From: a plasmid
Sequence record: NZ_CP018188.1
DNA: 64,000 nt
Direction: 5' to 3' (one strand)
The position numbers and the translations under genes are program-made. A model generated the notes under the pieces. That model did not search any database, was not told where the DNA came from, and was given only the letters and a program-made list of their open reading frames with translations. Each line of letters opens with the position of its first letter. The first letter of the stretch is position 1. Below are positions 36,737-56,486 of the stretch, piece by piece.

Positions 36737-37087
36737 TTGAAAGAAAACACATTTTTGAACAACGTGAAGGCAAAGGCATCAACATTAGGAATGACTGCTT
36801 TATTGACGTTAAACTCTGTATCCCTTGCTTTTGCGGAGCAAACTGGAGGAAATGGGACTGTTAACCCAGCTAATGAAGCTAATAACTGGATTAATAACTT
36901 TACAGATATGCTACGTCTCTTATTCCCGGGGATAGCAGTACTAAGTGGTTTAGGGGCATGTATCTTGATGATGATGGGTGATAAGAAACGATCAGTAGCC
37001 CTTGACCGACTTATGTGGATTGCAATCGCACTATGTGCCGGTTCAGCACTCGTTTCATTTGTTGATTATCTTTGGCAACCCAAATAA
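36737..37087 (+). CDS. VirB2/TrbC-like pilin candidate
   Basis: AAGGAG RBS with TTG start. A long signal peptide ends ..SLAFA|EQ, followed by two hydrophobic helices. The size (116 aa) is typical. Confidence 0.4.
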   Translation: MKENTFLNNVKAKASTLGMTALLTLNSVSLAFAEQTGGNGTVNPANEANNWINNFTDMLRLLFPGIAVLSGLGACILMMMGDKKRSVALDRLMWIAIALCAGSALVSFVDYLWQPK

Positions 37088-37107
37088 GTCTTTAAGAGGT
37101 ATACTTT

Positions 37108-38322: not shown

Positions 38323-38325
38323 CCT

Positions 38326-40569: not shown

Positions 40570-40580
40570 TAATAGTCTCA

Positions 40581-40612
40581 AAAAAACAAGCCTTGTGGCT
40601 TGTTTTTTATTT
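40581..40612. terminator. Bidirectional terminator between convergent genes
   Basis: AAAAAAACAAGCC-ttgt-GGCTTGTTTTTTAT. Confidence 0.55.
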
Positions 40613-40969
40613 CTTAACTAAAAATAAGAGGAAGAAAGGATTAAAGAGACTGATGATGAATAGGATAATACCACAGATTATTACTAAACCAAATACTGGG
40701 AAAAAGAAACTAGAAACAGCACCTACTAGGATTCCTATTGAATGGATGATGCCATGAAGTGTCATGAATAGACAAAATAGAGCAAACATTCCAGTAAGAG
40801 ACAACGAAAATTTAAACCAAATTGTTTCAGCAGCCTCACTTATCGTAGAAAAAAGAAGCGTAAGCAAGAAGCAAGCGATACCAATAAGTACTGAAAAAAG
40901 TAACCATTTTAATGAGGTCCAAGTGCTTATATATAGTGAAAAATAAAAATCTTGTAAAAAGTCTAGCAT
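40607..40969 (-). CDS. Small polytopic membrane protein (120 aa), opposite strand inside the block
   Basis: AGGAGGG RBS before ATG 40969. 3-4 hydrophobic helices. Confidence 0.5.
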   Translation of the reverse strand: MLDFLQDFYFSLYISTWTSLKWLLFSVLIGIACFLLTLLFSTISEAAETIWFKFSLSLTGMFALFCLFMTLHGIIHSIGILVGAVSSFFFPVFGLVIICGIILFIISLFNPFFLLFLVKK

Positions 40970-41176
40970 CCTAAAACCCTCCTAAAAAGATTATTGCGAT
41001 TGTATTTATTTGATTGTAACAGTTTTTTAGTAGCTAGACAAGGACAGAGAGCCCTAAATGGAAGGCGATTGTCAAAAACATGGAGAAGTAGGAGTAGCTA
41101 ATGGGTGTCACTGGGTTACGAACGTCCCATACCGTTTTGTAGAATAGGGAAGAATAATATTTATGGAGGAAATGAT

Positions 41177-41992
41177 ATGCCGGGTTTAATTGAAGAACCA
41201 GTATTGTCAAAAAAAGAGATTAAGAAACGAAAAAAAGAAGAGGCACGGAAAAGAAAACAAGAGAAGAAGAAGGAAAAGCAAACACAATTTGAAAGTATAG
41301 ACCTTGGTGAACGTGCCGGAGAAGAGTTTGTGTATGTCCCGCTCAATAAGAAAAAACGTAGAGATTTTTTAGACACTGTTGCGATTGCTGACGTGAAGTC
41401 TATTCTATATGGCTATCCTAATCAACCGATACGATTAGCTAATGGCTATTCAGGTTATGTGCAGATTTTTGAGGTGTTTGGGCAAGATATTCAAGCGATG
41501 TCTAATGAAGAACAAGCAGCTGTTAAGGTAGGCTTCACTCTTTTTCTGTCTGGTACTACCTTTGACATGATGCTTCAGACAACGAAATTACCAACAGATG
41601 TTTCAAGCCAATCTAACGAATTCCTACGTCTGCTGGATGAAGTCAAGCAAGAGCAGAATGCTCCAGAATTGATTATCAATGATGGCGATGATCTTGACAC
41701 AATTGCAAATAAAGAGAGACTTATTTATCAACTCAGGCAACGAGAAGATATTTTGAAAACAAAATATCTCGTACAACAAGTCGTTGCAATCAACCAACAA
41801 AATATCGAGTTCTTTATCTGGGTGTTTGGAGACACTCTGGCTGAAATAGATTCCAATACTCGTACCACCTTAACAATTGCTTCGAGCCACGGATTTGCCC
41901 CTAAAGTTGTATCTGTCGAAAAGAAGGAAGAGTTATTGACTCAATATTACAACTTTAATGATTCACTTAATGGTTCCCCTAACCAGTACTAG
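41177..41992 (+). CDS. Hypothetical protein with Lys/Glu-rich N-terminus
   Basis: GGAGGA RBS before ATG 41177. Highly charged N-terminal KKEIKKRKKEEARKRKQEKKKEK. Confidence 0.45.
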   Translation: MPGLIEEPVLSKKEIKKRKKEEARKRKQEKKKEKQTQFESIDLGERAGEEFVYVPLNKKKRRDFLDTVAIADVKSILYGYPNQPIRLANGYSGYVQIFEVFGQDIQAMSNEEQAAVKVGFTLFLSGTTFDMMLQTTKLPTDVSSQSNEFLRLLDEVKQEQNAPELIINDGDDLDTIANKERLIYQLRQREDILKTKYLVQQVVAINQQNIEFFIWVFGDTLAEIDSNTRTTLTIASSHGFAPKVVSVEKKEELLTQYYNFNDSLNGSPNQY

Positions 41993-42003
41993 AAGGAGTT
42001 TAC

Positions 42004-43965
42004 ATGGATTTAAGTTCACGAAAAATCAAGAAATATATTCGAGAGGGTTATGACCTCAATCTTATTAGTAGGATTCAAAGTGATATTCCAGATTTTAAAT
42101 ATGATGATAGATATTGGAGACAAGCAAATGGTTATTATAAGATTGCTCATGTTCCATATGACAGATATCCAGCACACGGTTTACCTGACTTTTGGATGAG
42201 TGATTTAATGCTCGTTGATAATGTAATCAGTTTTATGTCCTTAGAACATACTTTAAATAATGAAATGTCCGACTTAGCTTCAAAAGCTATTTCGAATATG
42301 TTAGCAACGCAAAATACAAAGGCTGCACAAGATGCAGATGATAAGAAGCGTATTGGTTCTTTATTAGGCTATCGCGAAAAACTTGATAATAATATTCCTT
42401 CTAAAAAAATCCACACTCGCTTTTTGTTAGCGGCAAACACATTGAATGAACTGGTAGAACGAGAAGCTGATCTGAAGCAACAGTTGAATCAGTATTCGAT
42501 TTCTTCTTCTGATGGCATGCAAGACGTCGAATATCATACAGCTTTTATTCCAGCTTCTCGATTGGAAGATACCCCACTACGTCGAAAAGGGCAAGCTGCA
42601 TCCGCCTGGGATTTAGGTGCTGGCTATCCTTTTAACCATACAAACTTAATGGATACCTATGGTGTTTACTTGGGTGAAACACGTACCGGTGGAGTAGTAA
42701 ACTTTGACCTTTTGCATGAAGATAGGGAACGTAAAATTCCTACAATGATGATTGCCGGAGCAGGTAATGGAAAAATGAAGTTGTTAGGTAATTTGATTGA
42801 TACCTATTTTGCTAAAGGACATACCATTTTTAACATTGATCTTACTGGTCACTTAAAAGACCTTACGGAACTTCAAGGTGGTCGATATGTTAAGATGTCT
42901 GGTACTAATAATCGAAATCATATTAACCTCATGCAAATTATTGCGACGGCTTCCTCTGCAGATGGAGAAACAACGGACCAGGTCCAGTCTTTCTATGCCC
43001 ACCGTAATAAACTACGTGCTTTAGCTCAAATTCTTGATCCAGGGTTAAAGAACTCTGACCTCAATAATTTGTCATCTGCTTTAAACGACTTTTATGAAGA
43101 CCGTAGTCTGTGGAACCGTAATGCAGAAGTCATGGACCAAGAAGACTTAACGATTACGAATGTTATTCCAGAAGATTATCCTACTCTATCTCATTGGGTA
43201 GAACGCTTAAACAAGCTTAAAGAGGACAAAATCGCAGAGGGGAATGAAATTGATGCTGCAAGTTATGACCGTCTCTTTAATGCTTTCTCTGGTCTATTGG
43301 GGGATTATCGCTTCTTAAATGCGACCTCACAGTTTGAAGATTTCTCAAATGAACAAGTTGTGACCTTTGACCTCTCTGGGATACAAGATACTGAACTTCT
43401 TAATATTCAGCTTTACCAAGTGTTATCTATCATTTCATCATACGCTGTAGCAAATGGAAGAAGGGTCTCTGAGTATTTCCGTAGAGGGATTATCGGGGGA
43501 GATAAGAGCCAACGACCTCATAGCATTATTACCATTAACGGAGCACATAAGCTCTTCAATTATCGTTATTCAGAGTCTCTTAACTTTCTAAAGGATTTGA
43601 TTGAGAATGTAAGTAGTAACTATTCTGCATTTATTATGGAAATGAGTTCGTTAGATAACATCCTCTTGAATGCAAACTCTACGGACGCAGTGGATTACGT
43701 TTTAGCGACACGCGCAATTTTCTCTATGATGACGTATCGTGTCTTTTCTCAATTAGGTGATTTGACTATCCCTCGTCTAGCAGATGCTTTACAAGGGGAA
43801 ATGACCGAGAGTGAACTTTCGTCACTTAAATATTTAAGAGATGGTGATTTCTTCCTAAATATTGCTTCTGTCAAGAACTTAGTCTTTAATCATCAGCTAG
43901 CGGATAATAGGTCTTATGGGAAGTATCCGTATGATGAACATGTTCGCTATGCATTCTTACCTTAG
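42004..43965 (+). CDS. VirB4-like ATPase candidate with non-canonical Walker A (GAGNGKM)
   Basis: 653 aa. P-loop-like IPTMMIAGAGNGKMKLLGNLI is followed by a DLTGH motif. The size and position are typical of T4SS VirB4/TrsE/PrgJ. The Walker A Ser/Thr is replaced by Met. Confidence 0.45.
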   Translation: MDLSSRKIKKYIREGYDLNLISRIQSDIPDFKYDDRYWRQANGYYKIAHVPYDRYPAHGLPDFWMSDLMLVDNVISFMSLEHTLNNEMSDLASKAISNMLATQNTKAAQDADDKKRIGSLLGYREKLDNNIPSKKIHTRFLLAANTLNELVEREADLKQQLNQYSISSSDGMQDVEYHTAFIPASRLEDTPLRRKGQAASAWDLGAGYPFNHTNLMDTYGVYLGETRTGGVVNFDLLHEDRERKIPTMMIAGAGNGKMKLLGNLIDTYFAKGHTIFNIDLTGHLKDLTELQGGRYVKMSGTNNRNHINLMQIIATASSADGETTDQVQSFYAHRNKLRALAQILDPGLKNSDLNNLSSALNDFYEDRSLWNRNAEVMDQEDLTITNVIPEDYPTLSHWVERLNKLKEDKIAEGNEIDAASYDRLFNAFSGLLGDYRFLNATSQFEDFSNEQVVTFDLSGIQDTELLNIQLYQVLSIISSYAVANGRRVSEYFRRGIIGGDKSQRPHSIITINGAHKLFNYRYSESLNFLKDLIENVSSNYSAFIMEMSSLDNILLNANSTDAVDYVLATRAIFSMMTYRVFSQLGDLTIPRLADALQGEMTESELSSLKYLRDGDFFLNIASVKNLVFNHQLADNRSYGKYPYDEHVRYAFLP

Positions 43966-43987
43966 AAATGGTGAAAGGGGAAATACA

Positions 43988-44293
43988 ATGAACCTACAGC
44001 AACCATATTCTGATGAGGCATTCCAACTACAAACTAAAATTCTGACAGAGGATAATCCGCATGATTTGGAAAGAATTGTAAATGATTACTTAGAGATCTT
44101 GGCTTACAAAAAGACCTGTCGTGTTGTTGATATTACTTATCAGATGCGAAAAACACATCTTTTAAGTAGTTTATGTGGCTTATTTGGAAGTCAGCAAGTG
44201 GATGAGTACTCAGCCATGATTATCTACCAAGAACCTGCTCGATTTGATTCGAGAATATTTGAAACAGAAGAAGTACCAGAGGAGGAAAATTAA
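43988..44293 (+). CDS. Hypothetical protein (101 aa)
   Basis: GAAAGGGG RBS before ATG 43988. Acidic C-terminus. Confidence 0.4.
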   Translation: MNLQQPYSDEAFQLQTKILTEDNPHDLERIVNDYLEILAYKKTCRVVDITYQMRKTHLLSSLCGLFGSQQVDEYSAMIIYQEPARFDSRIFETEEVPEEEN

Positions 44294-44296
44294 TCA

Positions 44297-44995
44297 ATGA
44301 CCACACTAATGCAACTGTCACTATGGGTTAACAATATATCTTATGACATTAAGACACTACGTTTCTTTAGGATAGTCTCCTTTATTATTAGTTTAGTTCT
44401 TGGTTTGGTTGGTTTCTATAGCTATCTCATGCTCTATCAGACACTTTTATTCGCCTACGGTGTTCATTTTATGGCTATTGCCTATACACCATATGTGTTT
44501 TGTGCCTTGACTGTAGCCCTTTATCAGCTACTTACTGGTAAGAGACGTGAACGTATCAAGAAAGCAAAGCATATTCTTATGTTTAGTCTTCTTCCTATTT
44601 GTTTGATGAACACCTGGGGCTTTATCACGCTAGTGACTTGGGGGCTTGCATGGGTTATGGCTAAACTAGAATATAACCATAGAAAACGAGCTGTTAAGGT
44701 CGTATCATTCTTCTCAAAGGAATATTCACCTCTTTTTGAAAAAAGATTGGCCAATCGAAGTAACTATTATGCTTATCAATCTGCTTATCGTCTCCTAGAC
44801 TTGATTCAGGTATCAGCTTATGAAGAACTCTTTAAGGAAGAAGTGACGGAAAAAGATTATAAAGCTGGTCTCGTTGTTAAGGAGTTACACCGTACTTTTA
44901 AAATCAAAGGTGTACCTTTTTCTAAGGTAACAGTAACAGATAAACTCTATATTGCTCCACAAAAAATGCCTATTATTGGCTTAAGGAGGTTTTGA
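44297..44995 (+). CDS. Membrane protein (232 aa)
   Basis: GAGGAGG RBS. 4 N-terminal hydrophobic helices. Confidence 0.45.
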   Translation: MTTLMQLSLWVNNISYDIKTLRFFRIVSFIISLVLGLVGFYSYLMLYQTLLFAYGVHFMAIAYTPYVFCALTVALYQLLTGKRRERIKKAKHILMFSLLPICLMNTWGFITLVTWGLAWVMAKLEYNHRKRAVKVVSFFSKEYSPLFEKRLANRSNYYAYQSAYRLLDLIQVSAYEELFKEEVTEKDYKAGLVVKELHRTFKIKGVPFSKVTVTDKLYIAPQKMPIIGLRRF

Positions 44996-44998
44996 TAT

Positions 44999-45421
44999 AT
45001 GGTATCTTATCGTTTTAAACGAGATGGTCAGTATATTCAGCGTGAACTAGAGCTAGATTCTCCTAATGATTATCAAGACCAAGGCTATCCGGAAAACCTC
45101 GAAGAGCAAGTAGATTATTCAGCGTTTTACGATACCTATTATGACGGTTTTGATGAGGACAGTATTTCACGTGAGCAAGAGAAAAAACAAGGTCTCATTG
45201 CGCGTGGGAAAGAAAGGTTATCCAGTGTCAAGGAGGATGTGACAGACTATTATAATTTGCAAGTGGAACGTCACAAAGACTATTACTCAGATGAAGATTC
45301 ATTTTGGATGCGAAAGCAACAACAAAAACGAAATCGAAAATTCATTAAACAAAGTATCTTTCTTGCCCTAGGACTTTTACTTGTATTTGGTTGGTATTGG
45401 CTAACCGCACTACTTCATTAA
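44999..45421 (+). CDS. Hypothetical protein with C-terminal TM anchor (140 aa)
   Basis: AAGGAGG RBS. Acidic N-terminus and a C-terminal helix (IFLALGLLLVFGWYWL). Confidence 0.4.
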   Translation: MVSYRFKRDGQYIQRELELDSPNDYQDQGYPENLEEQVDYSAFYDTYYDGFDEDSISREQEKKQGLIARGKERLSSVKEDVTDYYNLQVERHKDYYSDEDSFWMRKQQQKRNRKFIKQSIFLALGLLLVFGWYWLTALLH

Positions 45422-45438
45422 GGGGGTGACTAAGATAT

Positions 45439-47481
45439 TTGAAACGAATAGGTGATAAAGCTGCTCGTGTTCTTCTAACGATTTTTGGAGTGAAGACAAC
45501 CATTATTATAGGAACTATTTTAACTTTTGCGGTTATCTTAATTGCAATTATTACTGGTTTGATGGGCACGATTAGTACTTCAGGAGGAAATTCTGGAAAG
45601 ACTAACGCTCAATGTGTGACCTACCAAAAAGATGGCGATGAAGACGATGATGAAGAAGACGATGATGAAGGCTCTAAGCCTCAATCGACTTCTACTAAAA
45701 CTGACTCATCATCTGCAGGCGACTCTGATCCTTTTACGAAGGGAACAAAAGCTTATGAGAATGCCCACAAAGTCTTTATGGCTTTTGTGAATTCGGGAAT
45801 GTCCGGGGAATCTGCTGCAGGTGCAGTTGGTTGGGCAAACTCTGAAGGGAGCTATGATATCATTGGACGTGCCCAAGGGCATTATGGTAATGGTATCAAT
45901 GATTCCATTTCTAAAGGAGCTGTTCCAACGACAGGTGGTACATCAAATACGCTTGGGGGTGGTGGAATTTTCCAGTTTGACCCCTACACTAAATATGCAC
46001 CTCTTAATAGTCCTGATTGGGAAGATGCTGATAAGATGGTTGCCTTTGTTATCGATGCCATCTCAAAAGGTGACTGGAATCCAGCCTATGATGAATCTGG
46101 CCATAACTGGACATTTCAGGAGTTTGCCAAACAAACCAATATCGATGAAACGGCTATGTCATGGAATGCCTACGAACGAGGCAATATGGCTTATGTCAGA
46201 CCAGAGCAGAAGAAGGCGGATGCAAGGAAGTTTGCGGAAGTCTTTGAAGCAAGCAAGTATAAGTACGATGATGCCAAGTTCCAAAAAGCTTTTGGAGGTA
46301 GCGGTGCTTCTTCCAATAACTCCTCGTCAAGTAGTCAAAGTTCAGATGATGATGACGGTGACGACGATGAAGAAGATAGCGAGAACGAAGACGATGAGAG
46401 CGATAGCAGTTCATCAAGTGACTCTAGCAACAAAGATAGTAAAAAAGACAGTGACAAGGACAAAAAATCTATTGATACTGACAAAGCTATCAAGTGGTAT
46501 AAGGATAAGCTAGGCAAGGTCAAGTATTCTCGTGATGCTCGTACTGGACCAGATAGCTACGACCATTCATCTGCTCTTTACTATGCTCTTGTTGACGGAG
46601 GTGCTAAAGAATCTGGATCTCCAGTAGATACCGATTCAGAACACGACTGGTTGAAAGACAATGGTTATGAATTGGTGTATGAGGGAGCGTGGTCGTCCAA
46701 AGATGATGTTCAAAACCGTGAAAAAGGAGATGTCATTATCTGGGGTACGAAAGGAAGTAGCTCCGGAGATAAAGGACAGACCATGCTAGTTGAGGATAAG
46801 GAGAATATTATCCAATGTTCCCCTTCAAGAGATGGGATTGCTGAGAATAATTATGGCCAATATCGAGACCGTATTACTATGGACTACGGAAAAGTCTATG
46901 TCTATCGTCCGAAAGACAAGAAGGATAAGGATGATGACAAGGAAGAAGTAGATGCAGATACGTGTGGTGACAGCGATAGTAGTAATCTCAGCACTGATAC
47001 TGGTCAGCCACTTGATGTTCCTTATACCATTACCCAACTTTTCGGTGCAGCAGCTAATGCAGGTGGTCCAAATGCGGGTTCAGGACACACAGGAATGGAC
47101 CTTGCAGCACCAGAAGGCTCTCCAATTTATGCCGTAACAGACGGTGAAGTAGTAGAGGTCAATGAAGAGGCGATGAATATCGACGGTAACCACGTGATGC
47201 ACACTCTTCCAGATGGCACTATTATCTATTATGGACATATGCGTGATGTTCCTCTTGTTAAGAAAGGGGATAAGGTCAAAAAAGGCCAACTTATCGGATA
47301 TGTTGGACAAACGGGTGCAGCTACTGGGCCACATATTCACTTTGAACGTCGGAAAACGAAAGTCTTTCAGTACGGTGATTTCTTGAGTCCAGCATCAATT
47401 ATTTTAGGAGATACCCAACCACAAGTTGGTATGGTGATTGATCCTAAAACACAAAAAGGTGGAGCACCATCTAAAGAATAG
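45439..47481 (+). CDS. Multi-domain T4SS-type cell-wall hydrolase (PrgK/CwlT-like)
   Basis: N-terminal TM anchor, two acidic low-complexity linkers, a lysozyme/SLT-like region, an NlpC/P60-like segment with the Cys position replaced (SYDHSSALYY), and a C-terminal M23 peptidase. The M23 zinc motifs are intact (HTGMDLAAPEGSPIYA ... GHM ... GPHIHFE). AAGGGGGTG RBS with TTG start. Confidence 0.75.
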   Translation: MKRIGDKAARVLLTIFGVKTTIIIGTILTFAVILIAIITGLMGTISTSGGNSGKTNAQCVTYQKDGDEDDDEEDDDEGSKPQSTSTKTDSSSAGDSDPFTKGTKAYENAHKVFMAFVNSGMSGESAAGAVGWANSEGSYDIIGRAQGHYGNGINDSISKGAVPTTGGTSNTLGGGGIFQFDPYTKYAPLNSPDWEDADKMVAFVIDAISKGDWNPAYDESGHNWTFQEFAKQTNIDETAMSWNAYERGNMAYVRPEQKKADARKFAEVFEASKYKYDDAKFQKAFGGSGASSNNSSSSSQSSDDDDGDDDEEDSENEDDESDSSSSSDSSNKDSKKDSDKDKKSIDTDKAIKWYKDKLGKVKYSRDARTGPDSYDHSSALYYALVDGGAKESGSPVDTDSEHDWLKDNGYELVYEGAWSSKDDVQNREKGDVIIWGTKGSSSGDKGQTMLVEDKENIIQCSPSRDGIAENNYGQYRDRITMDYGKVYVYRPKDKKDKDDDKEEVDADTCGDSDSSNLSTDTGQPLDVPYTITQLFGAAANAGGPNAGSGHTGMDLAAPEGSPIYAVTDGEVVEVNEEAMNIDGNHVMHTLPDGTIIYYGHMRDVPLVKKGDKVKKGQLIGYVGQTGAATGPHIHFERRKTKVFQYGDFLSPASIILGDTQPQVGMVIDPKTQKGGAPSKE

Positions 47482-47838
47482 ATTGCAATTGTTATCAATG
47501 GTTTTTTCTCCAAGTTATCTTCCACTAAGTAACCTAACTGTTAGTGAAAATTAGGCGAAATCATACATAAACATATTTATGTATACACTAAAAAGGAGTC
47601 TGAGGATTCCTTTTTAGTGACTAGATTCTTCGTATGGAATATCAGAGGATGACCTTAATAATTTAGAAAAGCCAGCTCCCTTCATTATTAGGATAGCTGG
47701 CTTTTGGGAAATGGCTTTTATTGTATGAATTTGATATACTTTTATATGTAGAAAAGTGATAGACGGTGGCTTTCATTCATTAGAGAGGAGTGATGCCTAT
47801 GGGCAAGCATTCGAAATCTAGTAGAAAGGAGAGCCGTT

Positions 47839-47943
47839 TTGACAGCGTTTGAGGTTGTACAAACCATTCTAGGCTTTGGTAGTTTTACTATTGCTCTTAT
47901 TGGTTTATGCTACAAGCTCTTTAAGAACGATGACAAAAAATAA
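47839..47943 (+). CDS. Candidate type I toxin, Fst/Ldr-like small hydrophobic peptide (34 aa)
   Basis: GGAGAG RBS with TTG start. Product (M)TAFEVVQTILGFGSFTIALIGLCYKLFKNDDKK has a single TM helix plus a charged C-terminal tail. It is followed immediately by a bidirectional terminator and faces a convergent promoter. Confidence 0.4.
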   Translation: MTAFEVVQTILGFGSFTIALIGLCYKLFKNDDKK

Positions 47944-47986
47944 TCCGTCCCCACTTTTGGCGAAGTAAGACGGATTATTTTCGTTT
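47942..47986. terminator. Bidirectional intrinsic terminator
   Basis: AATCCGTC ... GACGGATT is an 8-bp stem with T-runs on both sides. Confidence 0.55.
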
Positions 47987-48052
47987 AAAACTAGCCACCG
48001 TCTTTTAAACGGATCTACGTAGAAGCTGATCGTACACTCAGTTTCTTTTTGT
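47945..48052 (-). ncRNA. Predicted antisense (antitoxin) sRNA convergent with the Fst-like toxin
   Basis: Minus-strand promoter with -35 TTGACA (reverse complement of 48084-48089), a 17-nt spacer and -10 TAGAAT (reverse complement of 48060-48065). The transcript would run into the shared terminator and overlap the toxin 3' end. Confidence 0.25.
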
Positions 48053-48611
48053 ATGTAGATTCTAGCAAATTAACTTAATTTTGTCAAGTTTATAACTTGC
48101 TATCGAATTTATATAATATTTTACATATTATAGTTGTTGGTTTTCAAAGTAAATTTTGATTATGAGCGACTATATGCTTTAGAAAAGCATAACAATTTGA
48201 AATATCTGTCAATTATAGTTGTTAATCTTAATAGGGAGTTGTATAATAAAAATACTTTCGAGAGGTATAACCGTTTAATCATATTATGAAGAGAAAGAAG
48301 TAGAATAACTGAAGACATTTAGATGAGTAATGAAAGCTATTGAAAGTAGCTTTATTCAGAGAGGTTCCTTATTTTCTTTTAGGTAAAAAATCTGTGGTAT
48401 CGGAACAAAATTTTAATTTTGTAAGATTGTCTAAGACTAACGTTTGAAAAGTTTATTGATGCGTTAGATGAGTAGTAAATAAACTTTTTGATTAAGTGAT
48501 AACATAATTGAGAGGTTTTTAAGTGTTTACTTCACTGTTTGAGTAGATTCATTATCTTTTGCAAATGAGTAACGGGTACTTTGTAGTATAAATATTGGGA
48601 GTTTAATTATT

Positions 48612-49436
48612 ATGGGAAGTTTATCTAGTAAATTAAAAAAAAAAATTTATAAACACTTTAAAAAAATAGTACTTGGTTTAAGTATTTGGTCATTATGGTC
48701 ACCAACGATATATCTTATATTTCAGTTAACTGGTGTTGAAAATAAAGAGTTTTTTAATTTTACATGGTTGACACCTAAAACAATCTTTCAGATTGTTTTT
48801 TTGCTCGTAATAATCTTTATTATATTTATGATGTTAGGTTTTCATGAGTCAAATTTAATGAGTAAGGATAGAAAGCCTATATCGATACCTGATAGTGAAG
48901 AAAAATTTTGGAATAAGAACTGTGTAAAGTTAGCTAGAAAGAATCCAGATTATGAGGGAAGTGTGGATTTCATGATGGATAATGATTATAAGTTCCTTTC
49001 TCAGAAGTTATTTTCTTCTATAATAGCAGTAACCACAATTCTATTTTCAACTTTACCGCAGAAAATACTTACCCCAGAGCTCAAAAATTTGTTTTTGTTA
49101 TATATATGTATTACAGGTGGAATTTATATTCTTTCATTTCTTTACCTATATTTCGCTTCTCTTAAAAAAGAAAAAAGAAGTATTTGGGAATATCTTTTCA
49201 TGTTCTACAGTATTTTGTGTAATCTCTTTGCAATTGTTTTTTTCTTAATTTTGTTTTTTGATGTATCACCTTCTGTTATTTCAAATTCTCATAAACTTAA
49301 TATAAGCTCAATTTGTTTTCGAAATATGTATTTAGGAGCTATTTTTGTAGGTTTCGTCATATTTTTCATTTCTTTTGTACTAGTGCCTTTAAGAGTACAT
49401 AAATTTAAACAGAAATGGGAGAATAAGATTCAATAG
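48612..49436 (+). CDS. Very AT-rich polytopic membrane protein (274 aa), function unknown
   Basis: About 6 TM helices, Lys-rich loops and roughly 25% GC. It is preceded by about 1.1 kb of AT-rich non-coding DNA. Confidence 0.5.
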   Translation: MGSLSSKLKKKIYKHFKKIVLGLSIWSLWSPTIYLIFQLTGVENKEFFNFTWLTPKTIFQIVFLLVIIFIIFMMLGFHESNLMSKDRKPISIPDSEEKFWNKNCVKLARKNPDYEGSVDFMMDNDYKFLSQKLFSSIIAVTTILFSTLPQKILTPELKNLFLLYICITGGIYILSFLYLYFASLKKEKRSIWEYLFMFYSILCNLFAIVFFLILFFDVSPSVISNSHKLNISSICFRNMYLGAIFVGFVIFFISFVLVPLRVHKFKQKWENKIQ

Positions 49437-49659
49437 TGCACTGACCCCAAAAAGTTAGTTAAATAATTTAAGTAAAGGATTTGGTTCTTTTCTACTATTT
49501 ATCAAGTATATCAAGGTATTTGATGAAAAATAGTTTGAGTTTCATAGTCAAACTAGGAAAATAATCTTTTTTGAACTAAAGTTTAGTGTAAAATGTGTAT
49601 ACTAAACCAACACCTTATCTGGTGTTTTTTGATAAGGCGTTACAGTAATATGGTATGAA

Positions 49660-50500
49660 CAATTTTACCGATTTTGGGTAGAAGTATAATCGTGAAGTTT
49701 GTTATGCGTTATGAGGTAATACATTGTTCTAATGAGACGATGTATAGAGGCAATCGTGTGTGGTTTGGTTGAAGTCACTTGCGGTTGTCTTTTCCGTTTC
49801 TCAGGCTAGAGAGTTTCCAGATTCATAGTGTCTGAAGTCAATGCCGATAAAATCATTGATTTGATTGGCAGAGTGAAACCGACGAATGTTACCATCTCCT
49901 CTAAAACACCTTGTCAGTGTTCAGAAAGCCTGCATAGTATTTGACCTCTTCTATCATTGGAGAGGTTTTCTTGACCGTACAATAACACGGATTAGCTAGT
50001 TTTGTAAGCTTATCTATTAAGTAAGTCATACGTTTTTCAGAGATGCGTTTTGCCGTAGACTGACGGATGATTGCTGTTAATGTGGCGTCATCCGACTCCA
50101 GTACAAAACTATTACATGGAAAAGTTATAACCAAGTTCCAATATTGTTCCCCAGTTGATGCCGACAAGATGTTTTCCAATTCGGGAAAAGTGACCTGTAA
50201 AACCTTGTGCAGACGGATTTTAGCGCAGATAATATCCTCAGTAAGATTCTGATAGAAATGGCTGAGGTCGTTTAATTCTTGATAAAGCACTTCTTGGACA
50301 TAGCTTGGGTTACGGTTGAGGATGAACTGAGACGCGCTAGTTTTTCAGCATCAATATTATCGGTTTTACGTACTCGTAAGCTATCTAGTTGTTTTGTTTG
50401 ACCTGAATGAGTTTATTGTTGTAGCATTCAATATAGTCTATAATAGCTTGTTGATAATCTTCTCTTGATAACACATCTATTAGGAATTCTTTATCGTAAT
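49660..50500 (-). pseudogene. IS110-family transposase remnant (frameshifted/truncated)
   Basis: The longest frame (49901-50290) carries a central IS110-like region (RLHKVLQVTFPELENIL). An adjacent frame carries the C-terminal family motif RFHSANQINDFIGIDFRHYESG. The reading frame is broken several times. Confidence 0.5.
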
Positions 50501-50558
50501 CTAATTGTTTTTCGAATACTGGTGTGATATATTTATGGCAAAAAACGAAAGGTAACGT

Positions 50559-51131
50559 TTGATAATGAGTTACGGTTATTTAGAAATATCGCCTAAAGCC
50601 CAAAAACTAATAGATGAGGGTAAAGCACGTATTGAAAAAGCGAATGTTGTTTGGAATCCTGGGTCAGGAAATACAGGGGTAGTTGAGTGGTGTAAATTCG
50701 TAGTAGTAGACGAAGATGAACTGAAAAATAATGACGTTAAGCTGATTGTTAGTGGTATAGCTGCTGGTGCTATAGCAACAGCGGGGATTGCTGTAGTAGT
50801 AGGTCATACTATAAAAAGAAAACAAGATGAAAGAGATCGTAAACTAAATAACTTGATTAGTTGCTTATCATTCTATACTCTAGAATTGTGTGATAATAAT
50901 GTACATCCGTCAACTGTATTAGATTTGAAAGTCGCTATAAGAGAATTTATGAGTGACAAAAAATTACTTAAAAAAGTTGATGAAACATTGTTAAAAAACT
51001 TGTCAACAACTATCAATCATTTAAATGAAGACGACAAGGACCAGATCAATGATAAAATTATTGATTTGCAAACTTATATTCAAAGTAAATCAAAAAGTAG
51101 TTCAAAATCATTCTTCAAGAAGGTGAACTAA
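50559..51131 (+). CDS. Hypothetical single-TM protein (190 aa)
   Basis: Soluble N-terminal domain, a Gly/Ala-rich TM helix (IVSGIAAGAIATAGIAVVVG) and a C-terminal Lys/Ser-rich tail. Possible TTG start. Confidence 0.5.
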   Translation: MIMSYGYLEISPKAQKLIDEGKARIEKANVVWNPGSGNTGVVEWCKFVVVDEDELKNNDVKLIVSGIAAGAIATAGIAVVVGHTIKRKQDERDRKLNNLISCLSFYTLELCDNNVHPSTVLDLKVAIREFMSDKKLLKKVDETLLKNLSTTINHLNEDDKDQINDKIIDLQTYIQSKSKSSSKSFFKKVN

Positions 51132-51135
51132 AAAG

Positions 51136-51897
51136 GTGCCAGATTATATGGAAATTTCTGAATCAAATAACATACTCCTCGGACGATTAAAAGAGCTACT
51201 GTATGATATTGAAAACTATGATTCAATGGTTTTGAATTATTCAAAAGTAAATGAGGAAATTGAATCACTAGAAAATAGGGGGCAAGAGGAACTAGATTCT
51301 TTTGACGCTAGACATCTCAACAACTTTATCGTTGAAAGTATTGGAGAAGCACCTAAAGAACTTTCTCGAGTAATCTCTAAAATGTTTAAAAAGAAGAGAC
51401 AGCAAAATTTAACAGAAATAGAGGAATATGCCAAAAAAGAGGAATTAGCTATAGAACAGTACTATAAGGTTTTTGCAGAAGAACGGGCTGAAATTCTTCG
51501 AAAAGAAAGTGAACAATTTAAGGAAGAATTGCTGGAACTGAATAAAACTCGTTCGAATCTACAGGAACTTCTAGCTGAATATGAACAACATTTTAGCAAG
51601 GTTGATTTTTTACCTGAAAAATATTTAAATAGTACTCAATTAGTTAGGATTATTAGTTATTTGGAAGACTATAGGGCTGATAATATAAAAGAAGCTATAA
51701 ATATCTTGTGTTCTGAGGAACAATTGGAGATAAAATTTAAACAACTGAACACAAGAATTGAGGACTTAGAAAAATCGCTAGATAATTTAAGAGCGGAAGT
51801 GTCTGATAACCTTAATACAGGTTTGTATAATGTTGAAGTCTCAATTTCGAATCTAGAGGACGAAATGAGTCAATTAAGATTTGATTTAAAGGATTAG
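51136..51897 (+). CDS. Hypothetical coiled-coil protein (253 aa)
   Basis: Predominantly heptad/Glu-Lys-rich sequence. It lies 4 nt after the upstream gene, so it is probably co-transcribed. Confidence 0.5.
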   Translation: MPDYMEISESNNILLGRLKELLYDIENYDSMVLNYSKVNEEIESLENRGQEELDSFDARHLNNFIVESIGEAPKELSRVISKMFKKKRQQNLTEIEEYAKKEELAIEQYYKVFAEERAEILRKESEQFKEELLELNKTRSNLQELLAEYEQHFSKVDFLPEKYLNSTQLVRIISYLEDYRADNIKEAINILCSEEQLEIKFKQLNTRIEDLEKSLDNLRAEVSDNLNTGLYNVEVSISNLEDEMSQLRFDLKD

Positions 51898-52606
51898 CTC
51901 ATTTCTATAATGGCTTCTAACACAGGAGTATTATATTAATAAATTGTTCCACTGTACTCTTAATGTTTGAACAGCGAAAAAGATATATGCAGTTTGTATA
52001 GGTTTATAATAGTATATTGCCGTGGGTAGAATTTAACATATATCTATTTCAGCCAAGAAGTACGACTGGAATAACGATTTAAAAGCAGAAAAATAACTAA
52101 TTTTACGAGATAAAAAAGCTCCTGAGAAGACCCAGGAGCATACAAAAAAGGCTGAGAACACATTCGGGGATTACCTGAAAAACAGGAGGCAGCACCTCTA
52201 CCTGAAGCGGATGAACCGCAACCTTTGAATGAGTCGTCACCGGCTCAAACTCAGTCTCAACCTTTATTTAATTTTACCAAATCTGAAGTGTTAGAGTCAA
52301 TTTATAAGATATGCTAGAATTGGATAGCCAAGAAATATTAATATAGTAAAAAAATGTAGGGGGGTTCTTCTGCATTTTTTTATATTCAAATACAGTTATT
52401 ATGTATTTATGTGTTTTAGTGACAACTTGAAGTGTGGTTAGCTATCTACTAAGGCCAAGCTTGTCAAGGTCTTCCTTATGTTTTCATTGCTTTCATGGTA
52501 TAATCAAGAGGATATTATCTTGGAAATGATACCACAAGTCTAGGTAACATCATTTTTAAAGATAGCAATTTGTAAACGAAATGGTAAATAGTAAAGGGAG
52601 ACTCAA

Positions 52607-55171
52607 ATGATTACGTCAGAAGAAATCAAAGCACGTCTGTGGAATGGAGCTACTGAGCTCCGTGGTTCAATGGACGCTAGCCGTTACAAAGACTACATGT
52701 TAGGACTCATGTTCTATAAATTCCTGAGTGACAAAACACTCAAAACCTTTGCAGAATTATCCGGGCTTTCTACTGATGTGGACGTGTTTGAGGAATATCA
52801 AAAGGCACACGAGTTATACGAAAAAGATCTGGAGAAGATGATCAGTGATAACTTAGGGTATGTGGTCAAACCTAAGTACTTGTATCAAAAATGGTTAAAT
52901 GACATGAATACAGGGCAGTTTGAAGTTCAGACGGTTACTGAAAGTCTTGGTGAATTTGAACGTAGTGTCGTGTCAACATACGAGACAGATGATTTTAATG
53001 GTCTTTTCTCAAGCTCAACGTTGGATTTGTCTGATACAGCTCTTGGTAGTGACCTGAACACACGAAGCAAGAACATTCAGGCTCTTATTCGTCTTTTTGA
53101 AGACTTGGACATGGTTGCCCTCCAAAAAAGTGATATTTTAGGAGATGCTTATGAGTACTTGATTGGGCAGTTCGCTATGGAATCTGGGAAAAAGGCTGGT
53201 GAATTCTACACCCCTCATCAGGTCAGTGAAGTCATGGCTCAGATAGTTGCGACAAATAAGTCTCTAGCCTCTATCTATGACCCAACTGTTGGTTCAGGGT
53301 CACTCCTTTTGACTGTAAAAAAACATTTATCTGAAGAGCAGCAGAAGGTTCTTAGCTACTACGGACAAGAAAAAAATACAGCGACTTACAACTTGACACG
53401 TATGAACCTCTTACTTCATGGTGTACGTCCTGAGAAGATGAGCATCAAAAACGGGGATACCCTTGCACAAGACTGGCCAGAAGATCCAGAGCGTCCAGAT
53501 GAAGGTGTACAGTTTGATGCGGTGGTTATGAACCCACCTTATTCGATTAAGAACTGGAACCGAGTCGGCTTAAAAGCTTCAGACCCACGTTTTGAAATTG
53601 CCAGTGTACTACCTCCAGATTCAAAAGGGGATTTTGCCTTCCTTCTTCATGGGCTTTACCACCTATCAACCACTGGTACAATGGCCATTGTATTACCTCA
53701 TGGGGTGCTTTTCCGTGGAGGAGCAGAAGGCGAGATTCGTCAGAAACTCATTGAAAAAAATCAGATTGATACCGTTATTGGTTTGCCAAGCAATCTATTC
53801 TCTAATACAGGGATCCCAGTATGTATCATCATTTTGAAGAAGAATCGTGACTTAAATGAGCCTGTTCTCTTTATTGATGCTTCGCATAACTTTATTAAAG
53901 TAGGGAAGCAAAATGTCCTTCAAGAAAAAGATATTGCTAAGATTGTAGATACATACAGTAATCGTACAGAAGAAGAAGGATATAGTCATTTAGCGAGTCG
54001 AAAGGAACTCATCAGCAACGAGTTTAATATGAACATTCCTCGCTATGTGACAGCTATAGACAATGAGATTGCTCACGATGTTGATGCCCATTTATACGGA
54101 GGTATTCCAAAAGAGAATATTGAGAACTTGAAGATTCTCAATCAATTAGTACCAGATGTTTTAGAACAAGCATTTACTGAAAAGCGTCCTGGCTATTTGG
54201 CTTTAAACAAAACGATTGATGAATTTTCAGACGAGGTATTATCAAGTACGGTAGTTCAAGAGACGATGATGCATGTGAAAGAAATGGTTGAAGCTTATCT
54301 GGATACCTACTGGACTCAGTTACATGAGCTTGGTAAGGAACGTAGTTCTAGACAGCTTAAAGAATCCATGTTAGCGGATATCAAACATCAGCTATCAGCC
54401 TTTGAACAACTTGACAGTTATGACGGGTATCAGATGATTGCTGAGATTTGGGCCAATAGCCTTGAACATGATTCAGAGTTTATTGAACAGTTAGGATTTT
54501 ACCAAGCTGGTCGAACACGTGAGCCCAATATGGTAAAAAAAGGTAAGAAAAAAGAACTTGTTCAAGACGGTTGGAATGGGGTTGTCGTTCCAAATAGTCT
54601 CATTGCTAGTGAACTTTATGCTAAGGAGCTAGCTGAAATTAAGGCTTTCAAATCACGTATTGCTGATATTGAAAGCGAAATGAGTGAGCTTGTAGAAAAT
54701 GCGAAGGTAGAAGATAGTGATGAGTACAATGCTCTCTTTGACTCTCTCAAAAAGAATGAAGAGGGTGAGGCTCAAGACAGTTTTGAAGGCAAGTTGATTA
54801 AAGATAGTTTGAAAGAGGCTGAAAAAGGGTCTCTTGAGTATGACCTTCTCAAGAAAGTCGATGACTTGACCAAAGAAAAATCAGCAGTCAATAAAAAGAT
54901 TAAGACCAAAGAGCAAGAGTTAAAAGAACTAGTGGCTGAACGCATTCTTCAATTGACAGATGAAGAAGTAGATCAACTCCTTTACAAAAAATGGTTTGGT
55001 TCAGTTATCGAAAGAGTGGAGAACTTAGTAGAATCCCCTCTTAAGTCTGAGATTGCAGTGGTAGATGAATTGAACAAACGCTACTCTGAAACATTAGATA
55101 GTCTAGATGATGAGATTGCTAAACTCGAAAAAGAACTGGAAGCAATGATGAAGGAATTGGTGGTGCTTTGA
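52607..55171 (+). CDS. hsdM: Type I restriction-modification N6-adenine DNA methyltransferase subunit (HsdM) with a long C-terminal coiled-coil extension
   Basis: HsdM N-terminal domain is present. SAM-binding motif IYDPTVGSGSLL and catalytic NPPY (VVMNPPYS) are present. 854 aa against the usual ~500-550. Confidence 0.9.
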   Translation: MITSEEIKARLWNGATELRGSMDASRYKDYMLGLMFYKFLSDKTLKTFAELSGLSTDVDVFEEYQKAHELYEKDLEKMISDNLGYVVKPKYLYQKWLNDMNTGQFEVQTVTESLGEFERSVVSTYETDDFNGLFSSSTLDLSDTALGSDLNTRSKNIQALIRLFEDLDMVALQKSDILGDAYEYLIGQFAMESGKKAGEFYTPHQVSEVMAQIVATNKSLASIYDPTVGSGSLLLTVKKHLSEEQQKVLSYYGQEKNTATYNLTRMNLLLHGVRPEKMSIKNGDTLAQDWPEDPERPDEGVQFDAVVMNPPYSIKNWNRVGLKASDPRFEIASVLPPDSKGDFAFLLHGLYHLSTTGTMAIVLPHGVLFRGGAEGEIRQKLIEKNQIDTVIGLPSNLFSNTGIPVCIIILKKNRDLNEPVLFIDASHNFIKVGKQNVLQEKDIAKIVDTYSNRTEEEGYSHLASRKELISNEFNMNIPRYVTAIDNEIAHDVDAHLYGGIPKENIENLKILNQLVPDVLEQAFTEKRPGYLALNKTIDEFSDEVLSSTVVQETMMHVKEMVEAYLDTYWTQLHELGKERSSRQLKESMLADIKHQLSAFEQLDSYDGYQMIAEIWANSLEHDSEFIEQLGFYQAGRTREPNMVKKGKKKELVQDGWNGVVVPNSLIASELYAKELAEIKAFKSRIADIESEMSELVENAKVEDSDEYNALFDSLKKNEEGEAQDSFEGKLIKDSLKEAEKGSLEYDLLKKVDDLTKEKSAVNKKIKTKEQELKELVAERILQLTDEEVDQLLYKKWFGSVIERVENLVESPLKSEIAVVDELNKRYSETLDSLDDEIAKLEKELEAMMKELVVL

Positions 55172-56454: not shown

Positions 56455-56486
56455 CATCAGCTAAGTTTGATATAGAAAGGACACGT

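Follow-up and report, generated by a model that had tools for sequence, protein, structure and literature searches.

[quoted passage not shown] The locus would be a plasmid-borne copy of a well-known kind of ‘addiction’ module, in which a 34-residue membrane toxin is silenced by an antisense RNA; its action as an addiction pair is proposed by analogy with characterized relatives. Parts of this picture are already known: the peptide is named by PGAP (‘putative holin-like toxin’, not PepG1, is the label on close relatives), and the rli28/RatA pairing has been noted in published work. Taken as a single locus, it is of small importance, adding a further copy of an addiction module that is widespread on plasmids and in prophages. 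The best-supported new point of our analysis is a long-distance pairing between the 5′ and 3′ portions of the toxin mRNA. An initial sequence-only reading had proposed a type I system with a convergent antisense promoter, overlap at the toxin 3′ end and a Bacillus-like architecture; homology to characterized systems supports this proposal, and all sequence features that it listed were found at their given coordinates. The promoter, both hairpins, the TTG start and the peptide are kept in >70 loci of Streptococcus, Enterococcus, Lactococcus, Vagococcus, Listeria and Staphylococcus, and it is because of this conservation that the elements described here exceed chance.

The toxin gene (47839–47943, + strand) encodes the previously noted 34-amino-acid peptide MTAFEVVQTILGFGSFTIALIGLCYKLFKNDDKK from a TTG start, which is shared by 83/85 loci. 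The single transmembrane helix and charged tail of that reading were recovered as a hydrophobic core at residues 6–24 (Kyte–Doolittle maximum 1.91) and a Lys-rich C terminus, KLFKNDDKK, with a net charge of +2. Its Shine–Dalgarno sequence, likewise recognized before, is AGAAAGGAGAG (47823–47833, + strand), with 7 nt between GGAG and TTG; across the family, GAAAGGAG is kept 6–9 nt 5′ of the toxin start, and a very strong ribosome site is a known txpA trait (PMC8167048). For the toxin ORF, pN/pS was ~0.34, with pN below pS in 99.8% of 1,152 pairs. Judged from these comparisons, the ORF is a real coding sequence and the family is under purifying selection. The locus might alternatively specify a non-coding regulatory RNA of the Rfam class of rli28, in which the ORF is incidental; rli28 is an sRNA gene in Rfam and was first described as such in Listeria (PMC9484302). 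We consider this extremely improbable, as the ORF is kept in >70 loci with synonymous far exceeding non-synonymous change, the strong ribosome site and TTG start are conserved, a curated protein family matches and the S. aureus homolog is translated (PMC4885055).

Profile searches placed the peptide in Hol_Tox (PF16935; 46.5 bits versus a gathering score of 23.3, residues 1–34 on profile positions 1–34), which was the only Pfam family at E ≤ 10. Among NCBIfam models, the equivalog PepG1 (NF041589) was the sole match at E ≤ 10, with 48.9 bits, under its cut-off of 70, and covering profile positions 14–47 of 47; the toxin is without the in-frame N-terminal extension of the PepG1 long form. With SprG1-31, the short form of the S. 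aureus SprG1 toxin, it shares 54% identity. Toxicity upon overexpression has been reported for the relatives SprG1–3, EF3263 and TxpA (PMC6393307, PMC2887945), and toxic EF3263 is accompanied by an antisense RNA of ~110 nt (PMC2887945). The peptide had earlier been likened to both TxpA and Fst. The first likeness named the correct family, while the second was not borne out, with no Fst family in either of the above searches at E ≤ 10. An Fst/RNAII (par-type, as in par of pAD1) module would combine an Fst-family peptide with complementary 5′ direct repeats and a shared bidirectional terminator. It resembles the locus in having a small Gram-positive membrane toxin with one transmembrane segment and a charged tail, convergent transcription and a shared terminator region, here a hairpin of bidirectional form. 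The peptide, however, belongs to another family, and the RNAs match rli28 and RatA rather than Fst/RNAII with its complementary 5′ repeats. Moreover, the repeat shared by the toxin 5′ end and the antitoxin is inverted in the DNA; it reads the same in both RNAs, so toxin and antitoxin cannot pair there, and complementarity is confined to the 3′ overlap. An Fst/RNAII module, thus, has a negligible chance of being correct, and the family label is corrected from Fst to SprG/TxpA.

The assignment to the SprG/SprF family extends to the RNAs. On the + strand, Rfam model RF01492 (rli28) matched 47725–47909 over model positions 1–186 of 186 with 71.4 bits against a gathering score of 45. The S. aureus sprG1/SprF1 locus is recognized by the same Rfam pair (rli28, 95.9 bits; RatA, 46.0 bits). 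Among nine homologous loci fetched, eight reached the rli28 gathering score, and seven of these eight carried RatA on the opposite strand (48.8–67.4 bits; six of seven reaching the gathering score). The toxin promoter, read from the sequence, is predicted to be weak; it consists of an extended −10 box, TGATATACT, at 47732–47740 (+ strand) and lacks a good −35; the poor −35 is why a consensus promoter scan missed it. This box aligns with the TGNTATAAT boxes located 7 nt 5′ of GTAGA or GACAG in homologs and would place the transcription start at approximately G47748. Relative to other clades, a 12-bp insertion creates a second possible −10 box, and the true start site is therefore uncertain. The predicted full-length toxin mRNA would span 47748–48052 (+ strand, ~305 nt), running through a first hairpin (T1) to a second (T2); its minimum free energy (MFE) fold has −99.5 kcal/mol (z = −5.5).

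On the − strand, an antisense antitoxin RNA of ~123 nt, RatA/SprF-like, is predicted to start at 48052 and end at 47930. Its complementarity to the 3′ region of the toxin mRNA is complete and includes the last four sense codons and the stop codon. Its promoter (48059–48087, − strand), already reported as TTGACA-17-TAGAAT in the first reading, comprises TTGACA at 48087–48082, a 17-nt spacer and TG-n-TAGAAT at 48064–48059. With 11/12 consensus matches plus the TG extension, it was the top-scoring site in a 3-kb scan, and its position is conserved in homologs. There, ≥10/12 matches occurred in 48/74 loci versus 2.2% of shuffles, and the TG extension in 65/74 loci versus 11% of shuffles. The sequence is, thus, consistent with an antisense RNA that has its own convergent promoter and terminator and lies opposite the toxin 3′ end; its predicted fold has −33.6 kcal/mol (z = −3.6). 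Rfam RatA (RF01776) aligned to the central CCGUU...GACGGUG motif of this strand with 29.5 bits (E = 0.25), below the gathering score of 49; homologous loci score 46–67 bits, and the window copy is, therefore, a diverged relative. A covariance model built from 59 homologous antisense regions, leaving out the S. salivarius clade (model R1), recovered the window copy at full length (48052–47930, − strand) with 72.7 bits (E ~1e-11). Weak extra matches of this model in the window, at 8619–8734 (− strand, 26 bits) and 40501–40613 (+ strand, 22 bits), are probably generic terminators in AT-rich sequence.

Two hairpins lie within the overlap of the predicted transcripts. T1 (47937–47981) consists of a perfect 13-nt inverted repeat (47937–47949 and 47969–47981) with the toxin stop codon inside its 5′ arm. 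An A-run upstream and a T-rich run downstream make it bidirectional in form, in line with the bidirectional terminator previously placed at the toxin end. On the − strand, T1 would act as the intrinsic terminator of the antisense RNA, its U-tract (tail UUUUUUGUC) encoded by the toxin Lys codons. On the + strand, where it is followed by UUAUUUUCGUUU, it is predicted to be a leaky terminator or a stem-loop of the toxin mRNA; homologs from mitis/infantis-group streptococci with the same T1 stem have no + strand T-run after it. T2 with its U-tract (48021–48051, + strand) had gone unnoticed in the first reading. A terminator scan located it at 48021–48046, with 9 pairs and the tail TTTTTGTATGT. It would serve as the intrinsic terminator of the toxin mRNA, at which a read-through transcript would end, and its complement would form the 5′ stem-loop of the antisense RNA. 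In homologs, T2 changes on both sides at 8/9 pairs and its + strand T-run is conserved, and the T1 helix also covaries. The paired percentages for T1 and T2 in the alignment (48–72%) are too low because both hairpins are poorly aligned between clades.

The long-distance pairing starts from an 11-nt complementarity already pointed out in the sequence-only reading, AGACGGTGGCT at 47761–47771 with its exact reverse complement at 47993–48003. These are the only two matches of the 11-mer in the 64-kb window at ≤1 mismatch, with 0.30 expected. Its suggested role in long-range 5′–3′ pairing gained considerable ground, as the pairing is conserved, covarying and thermodynamically predicted in most homologs. 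Sequence comparison shows that the complementarity is not a chance match and is one arm of a two-helix structure. In helix A, UGUAGA (47747–47752, + strand), which begins at the predicted first mRNA nucleotide, pairs with UCUACG (48014–48019). In helix B, AGACGGUGGCU (47761–47771, + strand) pairs with AGCCACCGUCU (47993–48003). The 3′ arms together occupy 47993–48019 (+ strand), and an alternative local hairpin, CCGU/ACGG (47998–48012, + strand), lies between them.

Several lines of evidence support both helices. The helix B core, GACGGTGGC / GCYACCGTC, occupies fixed positions across the family, with GACGGTGGC at −72 to −81, and 93% of helix B alignment cells are paired. In helix A, four pairs have changed on both sides; the alignment contains no fewer than five compensatory variants, and GAGC/GCUC of S. 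aureus brings the number to at least six. Over the whole long-distance pairing, 90.8% of cells were paired versus 30–63% with the partner slid, and the covariation score of 0.252, against 0.167 in shuffles, was reached by 0/500 of them, in counts that ignore kinship. Across the two helices, G–U mismatches (100 cells) outnumber A–C mismatches (22 cells), which suggests that the pairing occurs in the + strand RNA. Pairing probabilities in the window were 0.99 for helix A and 0.92 for helix B; values of >0.5 were obtained in 63/70 and 65/70 homologs, respectively. MFE folding likewise gave the pairing in the window and, with z = −9.1, in S. aureus sprG1. RNAalifold, applied to a 420-column MAFFT alignment, recovered only four helix B pairs, the local CCGU/ACGG hairpin and part of T2; per-sequence folding was more informative than this alignment fold. 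As read from the predicted transcripts, the pairing covers the antitoxin target and would require read-through to the second terminator, T2; some toxin transcripts may stop at T1 and, hence, be without the 3′ arms. For the SprG/TxpA family, a description of 5′–3′ pairing was not found in the papers searched.

Other structures for the same sequences were evaluated. In the structure of the Rfam rli28 model, the GGUGGC motif pairs with a segment of the coding region, and two of the five pairs are G–G mismatches in the window; the conservation of this motif is explained better by the 5′–3′ pairing. A 10-nt complementarity between the spacer from ribosome site to start (47830–47839) and 48007–48016 was set aside, the CCGTTT spacer being confined to the S. 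salivarius clade. A bsrG/SR4-like scheme, in which antitoxin binding frees the 5′ motif for a helix that sequesters the ribosome site, was dropped as the main mechanism, as it produced no consistent change in accessibility. When the antisense-covered region was blocked in partition function calculations on 70 homologs, ribosome-site accessibility was lower in 28 loci and higher in 16, with median unpaired probabilities of ~0.36 with the 3′ region free and ~0.28 with it blocked.

The toxin is preceded by a second ribosome site and start codon. The leader element (47782–47852, + strand) comprises AGAGAGGAGUGAU (47782–47794) and a 17-codon ORF from the ATG at 47799 to the TGA at 47850–47852, encoding MGKHSKSSRKESRFDSV. 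This leader ORF is read in a different frame from the toxin and overlaps its start, terminating 14 nt beyond it. An upstream AUG with a strong ribosome site is present in 65/72 loci, in frame 0 relative to the toxin start in 22, +1 in 26 and +2 in 17. What is conserved of the second start codon of S. aureus sprG1 is, thus, the start itself and not the reading frame. Translation of the hok toxin is driven by a leader ORF, mok, that overlaps the hok start. The leader ORF described here probably supplies the weak TTG with ribosomes. Its AUG has a counterpart in S. aureus sprG1 that lies in frame and is used (PMC4885055). For the SprG/TxpA family, the papers searched contained no description of a leader start codon that delivers ribosomes.

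How these elements might act together can be outlined from relatives and from the predicted structure. The duplex of RatA with txpA is cut by RNase III (PMC3531473), SprF1–3 neutralize their toxins (PMC6393307), and in S. aureus, SprF1 pairs with the toxin 3′ end, the toxin RNA having a lifetime ~12× that of SprF1 (PMC4885055, PMC6393307). By analogy, the antisense RNA would form an extended duplex with the toxin mRNA that is cleaved, by RNase III in B. subtilis, removing the toxin mRNA; upon loss of the element, the short-lived antitoxin would disappear first and toxin would be made. The 5′–3′ pairing would add a further layer. The first nucleotides of the toxin mRNA, GUAGA followed by GACGGUGGCU, would pair with AGCCACCGUC and UCUAC between T1 and T2, the very stretch that the antitoxin must invade. 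Both motifs (GUAGA and GACGGUGGC) also occur in the antitoxin, which would therefore compete with the toxin’s own 5′ end for this site. Pairing may hide the 5′ end and stabilize the toxin mRNA, and antitoxin binding may, besides generating a substrate for nucleases, uncover the 5′ end. We tentatively extend this model, as a possibility of somewhat less than even odds, to the whole SprG/TxpA family including sprG1: the mRNA would be circle-like, with its 5′ end paired to the antitoxin target; the antitoxin would act partly as a competitor that exposes the 5′ end, linking duplex cleavage to 5′-end decay; and the leader start, in any frame, would feed ribosomes to the weak TTG in a mok-like manner. 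The comparison yields a concrete structural model of the family’s toxin mRNAs that can be put to the test, with paired ends overlapping the antitoxin target. It bears on how, in 3′-overlapping type I systems, an antitoxin far from the ribosome site controls toxin mRNA stability and translation.

Comparison with known systems placed the module closest to its family members. With sprG1/SprF1 of the S. aureus phage PhiSa3 (core-genome paralogs sprG2–4/SprF2–4), it shares the Pfam family at the above-mentioned 54% identity, the same two Rfam families on opposite strands ~60–70 bp apart, a convergent antitoxin over the toxin 3′ end, an upstream AUG with a strong ribosome site, the predicted 5′–3′ pairing and a location on a mobile element. 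Unlike the window, with its separate 17-codon leader ORF and TTG start, sprG1 has an AUG start and an in-frame upstream AUG that yields a 44-aa long form (PMC4885055); the window copy resides in a Streptococcus host on a plasmid-like conjugative element and is known from sequence alone. The txpA/RatA pair of the B. subtilis skin element is similar in mRNA length (~270 nt for txpA versus ~305 nt here), in a toxin mRNA with its own terminator, in a ~120-nt 3′ overlap with a convergent antisense RNA, in a toxin terminator that is the complement of an antitoxin stem-loop and vice versa, and in its very strong ribosome site (PMC3531473, PMC8167048). It differs in that TxpA (59 aa) and RatA (222 nt) are both longer than their counterparts here and in that the window antisense RNA does not reach the gathering threshold of RatA; no 5′–3′ pairing is reported in the structure-probing study of txpA.

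The rli28/RatA pairs of Listeria plasmids (pLM80) and Streptococcus agalactiae prophages have an identical arrangement, with RatA ~55–60 bp downstream on the other strand. A Hol_Tox/BsrH-like ORF lies inside rli28 in the pairs from both sources (PMC9484302, PMC6064168), and rli28 and ratA rank with the most strongly expressed genes of Listeria plasmids (PMC9484302). The papers on these pairs give the two Rfam matches and merely speculate on a toxin–antitoxin function; they describe neither a mechanism nor 5′–3′ pairing. Toxin mRNA ends that pair by fold-back are known from hok/sok (with mok) and aapA1/IsoA1 (PMC8167048), which have no sequence or family relationship to the module and are functional analogies only. 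The antisense RNAs of hok and aapA1 are directed at the 5′ region, and folding back of the mRNA keeps the ribosome site hidden until the 3′ end has been processed. In the window, by contrast, the target of the antisense RNA is the 3′ region, with which the toxin 5′ end itself pairs, and no effect on ribosome-site accessibility was detectable in silico.

The host element is very close to S. salivarius megaplasmids, to which the region is 92–94% identical, and the module adjoins conjugation genes: the upstream neighbors are a TraG-like ATPase and a cell-wall hydrolase. Within the 64-kb window, no second toxin ORF was present. The locus directly follows the gene for this 680-aa hydrolase with lysozyme, amidase and M23 domains, and in Javan prophages the homologous module lies directly after lysin genes. 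This setting, the family name ‘holin-like toxin’ and the reports that SprG1 peptides are toxic, secreted and lyse other cells (PMC4885055, PMC4147584) would fit a small membrane or holin-like peptide acting together with the neighboring peptidoglycan hydrolase, for example in hydrolase export or lysis, the antisense RNA only tuning the peptide level. However, the gene comes with a promoter and terminators of its own, and a conserved antisense RNA is dedicated to it. This module is also found beside unrelated genes (sea and a holin in phiNM3, a recombinase, a relaxase, ssb and an ABC transporter), Javan424 already encodes a canonical holin, and relatives behave as toxin–antitoxin pairs (PMC6393307). 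A hydrolase partner is, thus, quite unlikely. As a toxin–antitoxin pair, the module probably helps a large, conjugative plasmid-like element of S. salivarius to persist in its host.

Decayed copies occur in close relatives: the S. equinus copy is interrupted by an in-frame stop, and that of S. salivarius YU10 carries both an insertion and a frameshift. The module is, therefore, not always maintained; moreover, several homologous loci (for example, L023, L076, L083 and L089) have lost the 5′ region. Together with a toxin promoter without a −35 and with the 12-bp insertion, these copies would suit an inactive remnant, with at least one of the two promoters silent or with a peptide that has lost its toxicity in this host. 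We regard this as unlikely for the window copy, in which the ORF, both ribosome sites, the terminators, the pairing arms and the near-consensus antitoxin promoter are all intact, within a family under purifying selection. The peptide encoded by S. salivarius AMBR024 (L010) is identical to the window toxin.

The 34-aa ORF proposed in the sequence-only reading as the toxin of an Fst-like type I toxin-antitoxin locus is present at 47839-47943 (+), where a TTG start preceded by a GGAGAG-type ribosome site (AGAAAGGAGAG, GGAG-to-start spacing 7 nt) opens a frame encoding MTAFEVVQTILGFGSFTIALIGLCYKLFKNDDKK. Its description as a single-transmembrane peptide with a charged tail agrees with a mean Kyte-Doolittle hydropathy of 1.91 over residues 6-24 and a Lys-rich tail. 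The window contains a single toxin copy. In Pfam, the peptide matched Hol_Tox (PF16935) over its full length (46.5 bits; gathering score, 23.3), and a scan at E up to 10 returned no other family, which excludes Fst. The assignment to type I and the architecture were correct, with all proposed sequence features lying within 47700-48120, but the Fst label was wrong. The sole NCBIfam match was PepG1, the S. aureus SprG1 toxin; its 48.9 bits fall short of the equivalog cut-off (70), as only profile positions 14-47 are aligned. Identity to the window peptide is 54% for the short S. aureus SprG1 toxin and complete for the S. salivarius AMBR024 peptide. Start codon TTG was conserved in 83 of 85 distinct loci, with GAAAGGAG upstream in every case. 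Substitution patterns place the toxin coding sequence under purifying selection (median pS = 0.55, median pN = 0.19; pN < pS in 99.8% of pairs).

Rfam searches identified rli28 at 47725-47909 (+; 71.4 bits, gathering score 45) and, below threshold, RatA at 47973-48062 (-; 29.5 bits, gathering score 49). Among nine fetched homologous loci, rli28 reached its gathering score in eight; opposite it, RatA scored 48.8-67.4 bits in seven of those eight, six of the seven reaching the gathering score. The S. aureus sprG1/SprF1 locus of phage phiNM3 shares the same pair of matches (rli28, 95.9 bits; RatA, 46.0 bits). A custom covariance model, built from 59 homologous antisense regions with the S. salivarius clade left out, recovered the predicted antisense RNA of the window end to end (72.7 bits, E about 1e-11). 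On the basis of the Hol_Tox and rli28/RatA matches, the likeness to sprG1 and the custom model, we assign the locus to the family known both as TxpA/RatA (Fozo et al. 2010, PMC2887945) and as SprG/SprF (PMC6393307). From Rfam matches alone, the family has been recorded as rli28 plus RatA on Listeria plasmids and in S. agalactiae prophages (PMC9484302, PMC6064168).

In blastn with the 420-bp region, identity was 89-93% for seven megaplasmids of Streptococcus (six S. salivarius, one Streptococcus sp.) and 83% for an additional one, from S. equinus; copies in Javan prophages of other streptococci were 76% identical, and those on plasmids of Lactococcus, Enterococcus and Listeria about 70%. In all, 320 plasmid records matched. 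Scanning one genome per species for homologues contributed another 80 loci, found in Streptococcus, Enterococcus, Vagococcus, Lactococcus, Gemelliphila, Granulicatella and Tetragenococcus. Where annotated, homologous ORFs are named 'putative holin-like toxin' or 'pepG1' by PGAP. The locus is a new member of a known family that automatic annotation already names and is, for that reason, of little interest by itself. Several genomes carry paired module copies close together (loci L084, at 1501 and 1978; L057, at 291 and 816; L015/L016), recalling the multiple sprG/sprF copies of S. aureus. Tandem spacing was ~480-525 bp in a Vagococcus metagenome-assembled genome and an Enterococcus, while the two copies of S. 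suis 10581 (L015/L016) lie on one contig about 5 kb apart.

The ORF ends, as proposed, at a bidirectional-type terminator, T1 (47937-47949/47969-47981, both strands), a perfect 13-nt inverted repeat with the toxin stop codon within its 5' arm and placed between an A-run and a T-rich run. The near-consensus minus-strand promoter for the antitoxin was located at 48087-48059 (-); with 11 of 12 matches and a TG extension, TTGACA-17-TAGAAT is the top promoter-like site of a 3-kb scan. Of 74 intact-ORF loci, 48 have an antisense promoter with 10 or more of 12 matches (shuffles, 2.2%) and 65 have the TG extension (shuffles, 11%); the -10 box ends in the narrow interval from +214 to +225 relative to the toxin start. 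Absent from the sequence-only reading was a second, intrinsic terminator, T2 (48021-48046, +), with a 9-bp stem followed by TTTTTG. Both hairpins show many compensatory changes, and in T2 both sides changed in eight of nine pairs. A plus-strand T-run follows T2 in all homologues, whereas none follows T1 in those streptococcal homologues (mitis and infantis group) whose T1 stem is shared with the window. These patterns, together with promoter and hairpin conservation, indicate that the toxin mRNA extends to T2, with a predicted length of ~305 nt here, in agreement with B. subtilis txpA, an RNA of ~270 nt that stops at a terminator of its own and has a ~120-nt overlap with RatA (PMC3531473). The terminal Lys codons and stop of the toxin (AAAAAATAA; 47930-47943) are the complement of the antitoxin's T1 U-tract on the minus strand. 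Lys tail and antitoxin terminator are, therefore, one stretch of DNA, which places the conserved KK(K) tail under a joint constraint with the antitoxin 3' end.

The 11-mer AGACGGTGGCT (47761-47771) has its exact complement at 47993-48003, and beyond this pair no other match exists in the 64-kb window (0.30 expected). Long-range pairing between them had been raised as a possibility, and comparative data bear it out: the complementarity belongs to a conserved, covarying 5'-3' pairing predicted in most homologues folded. In this helix B, the core GACGGTGGC lies 72-81 nt 5' of the toxin start in almost all loci and GCYACCGTC 150-160 nt 3' of it. A shorter second helix, helix A, joins GUAGA (47748-47752), the predicted first mRNA nucleotides, to UCUAC (48014-48018). 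Wherever the TGNTATAAT box of a homologue is perfect, GUAGA or GACAG has its G 7 nt past this -10 box. The toxin promoter of the S. salivarius clade (47721-47740) contains a 12-bp insertion relative to the copies on Javan prophages and E. faecalis plasmids. The insertion gives rise to a choice of two possible extended -10 boxes, TGTATGAAT and TGATATACT, and which of them is active would decide whether the 5' end falls exactly on helix A.

In a 74-sequence alignment, the 17 pairs were formed in 90.8% of cells, as compared to 30-63% with the 3' partner slid by 1-3 columns, and the covariation score of 0.252 (0.167 in shuffles) was reached by none of 500 shuffles. Helix A occurs as GUAGA/UCUAC, ACAGU/GCUGU, ACAGA/UCUGU, GCAGA/UCUGC and GUAGG/CUUAC, and as GAGC/GCUC in S. 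aureus. Non-Watson-Crick cells comprised 100 G-U and 22 A-C, an excess expected if plus-strand RNA pairing is selected, beyond DNA alone. Folded singly, 65 of 70 homologues formed helix B and 63 of 70 helix A with pairing probability >0.5 (window, 0.92 and 0.99, respectively). Both helices are contained in the minimum free energy structures of the window's 305-nt RNA (-99.5 kcal/mol, z = -5.5) and of the 308-nt S. aureus sprG1 RNA (-113.8 kcal/mol, z = -9.1). Being the complement of the 3' arms, the antisense RNA carries GUAGA and GACGGUGGCU, as does the toxin mRNA 5' end; with identical motifs, the two cannot pair there and would instead compete for one 3' UTR segment.

The leader contains an AUG (47799, +) with the ribosome site AGAGAGGAGUGAU 5' of it, opening a 17-codon ORF (47799-47852, +; product MGKHSKSSRKESRFDSV) that is out of the toxin frame and ends 14 nt beyond the toxin start. 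The AUG with a strong ribosome site was kept in 65 of 72 aligned loci, in frame 0 relative to the toxin start in 22, +1 in 26 and +2 in 17. An in-frame AUG gives the 47-aa 'PepG1' long form, found in Enterococcus and S. aureus. Unlike the window's AUG, that of S. aureus sprG1 is in frame with the toxin, and both starts are used (PMC4885055). Because the start is conserved but its frame varies, we suggest that translation through the leader, rather than the peptide encoded there, is what matters, for example because it opens structure or lets ribosomes re-initiate at the weak TTG. For this family, we found no description of the conserved pairing or the frame-variable leader start in the open-access papers searched, and these are the parts that merit follow-up.

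Gene content, signals, family membership and the conserved pairing are shown by the sequence and its comparison; for function, relatives provide a guide. Their peptide is a membrane toxin (PMC4885055, PMC2887945), and pairing of their antisense RNA with the 3' overlap leads to decay of the toxin mRNA, in B. subtilis via RNase III (PMC3531473). SprF2 has no direct blocking effect on translation (PMC6393307). In an S. aureus relative, the toxin RNA lives ~12 times longer than the antitoxin (PMC4885055), by which the module would work as a plasmid addiction system. The long-distance pairing may sequester the toxin mRNA's 5' end, which would stabilize the transcript. In Firmicutes, a paired 5' end is known to protect RNA against 5'-end-dependent decay. 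The antitoxin would have to displace the toxin 5' end to complete the duplex, so that its binding would both create an RNase III substrate and expose the 5' end. Displacement was also considered as a means of tightening ribosome-site sequestration; across 70 folded homologues the effect had no consistent direction, and the idea was dropped as the main mechanism.

The surrounding region (36000-52000) shares 92-94% identity with S. salivarius megaplasmids. Genes 5' of the module encode a TraG-like ATPase, a ClpB-like double AAA+ ATPase (34720-36663, +) inside the conjugation block and a 680-aa protein (45439-47481, +) in which long low-complexity linkers, acidic and Ser-rich, set apart phage tail lysozyme, Amidase_5 and Peptidase_M23 domains. 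The latter protein, named 'phage tail tip lysozyme' on related plasmids, closes the conjugation-like gene block. Two ORFs lacked Pfam matches: one of 747 aa (38326-40569, +) and one of 274 aa with many hydrophobic segments (48612-49436, +), which lies 3' of the module beyond a 500-bp AT-rich spacer with several promoter-like sites. Further downstream on the same element is a complete type I restriction-modification system (HsdM, HsdS and HsdR; 52607-59609, +). Decayed toxin copies of close relatives were identified on S. salivarius pSsal-YU10 (L001, 4110-4271), with a 3-nt insertion, a frameshift extending the C terminus and mutations that also affect the long-distance pairing, in its 3' arm, and on an S. 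equinus plasmid (L004, 651-752), with an in-frame stop at codon 8. Elsewhere in the window, the custom antisense model gave weak matches at 8619-8734 (-; 26.1 bits, rough E 0.005) and 40501-40613 (+; 21.6 bits, 0.04); neither has a toxin-like ORF nearby, and both are probably generic terminator hairpins. Rfam additionally identified Spy392987, an S. pyogenes antisense RNA, at 4813-4875 (+; 68.7 bits, threshold 47).
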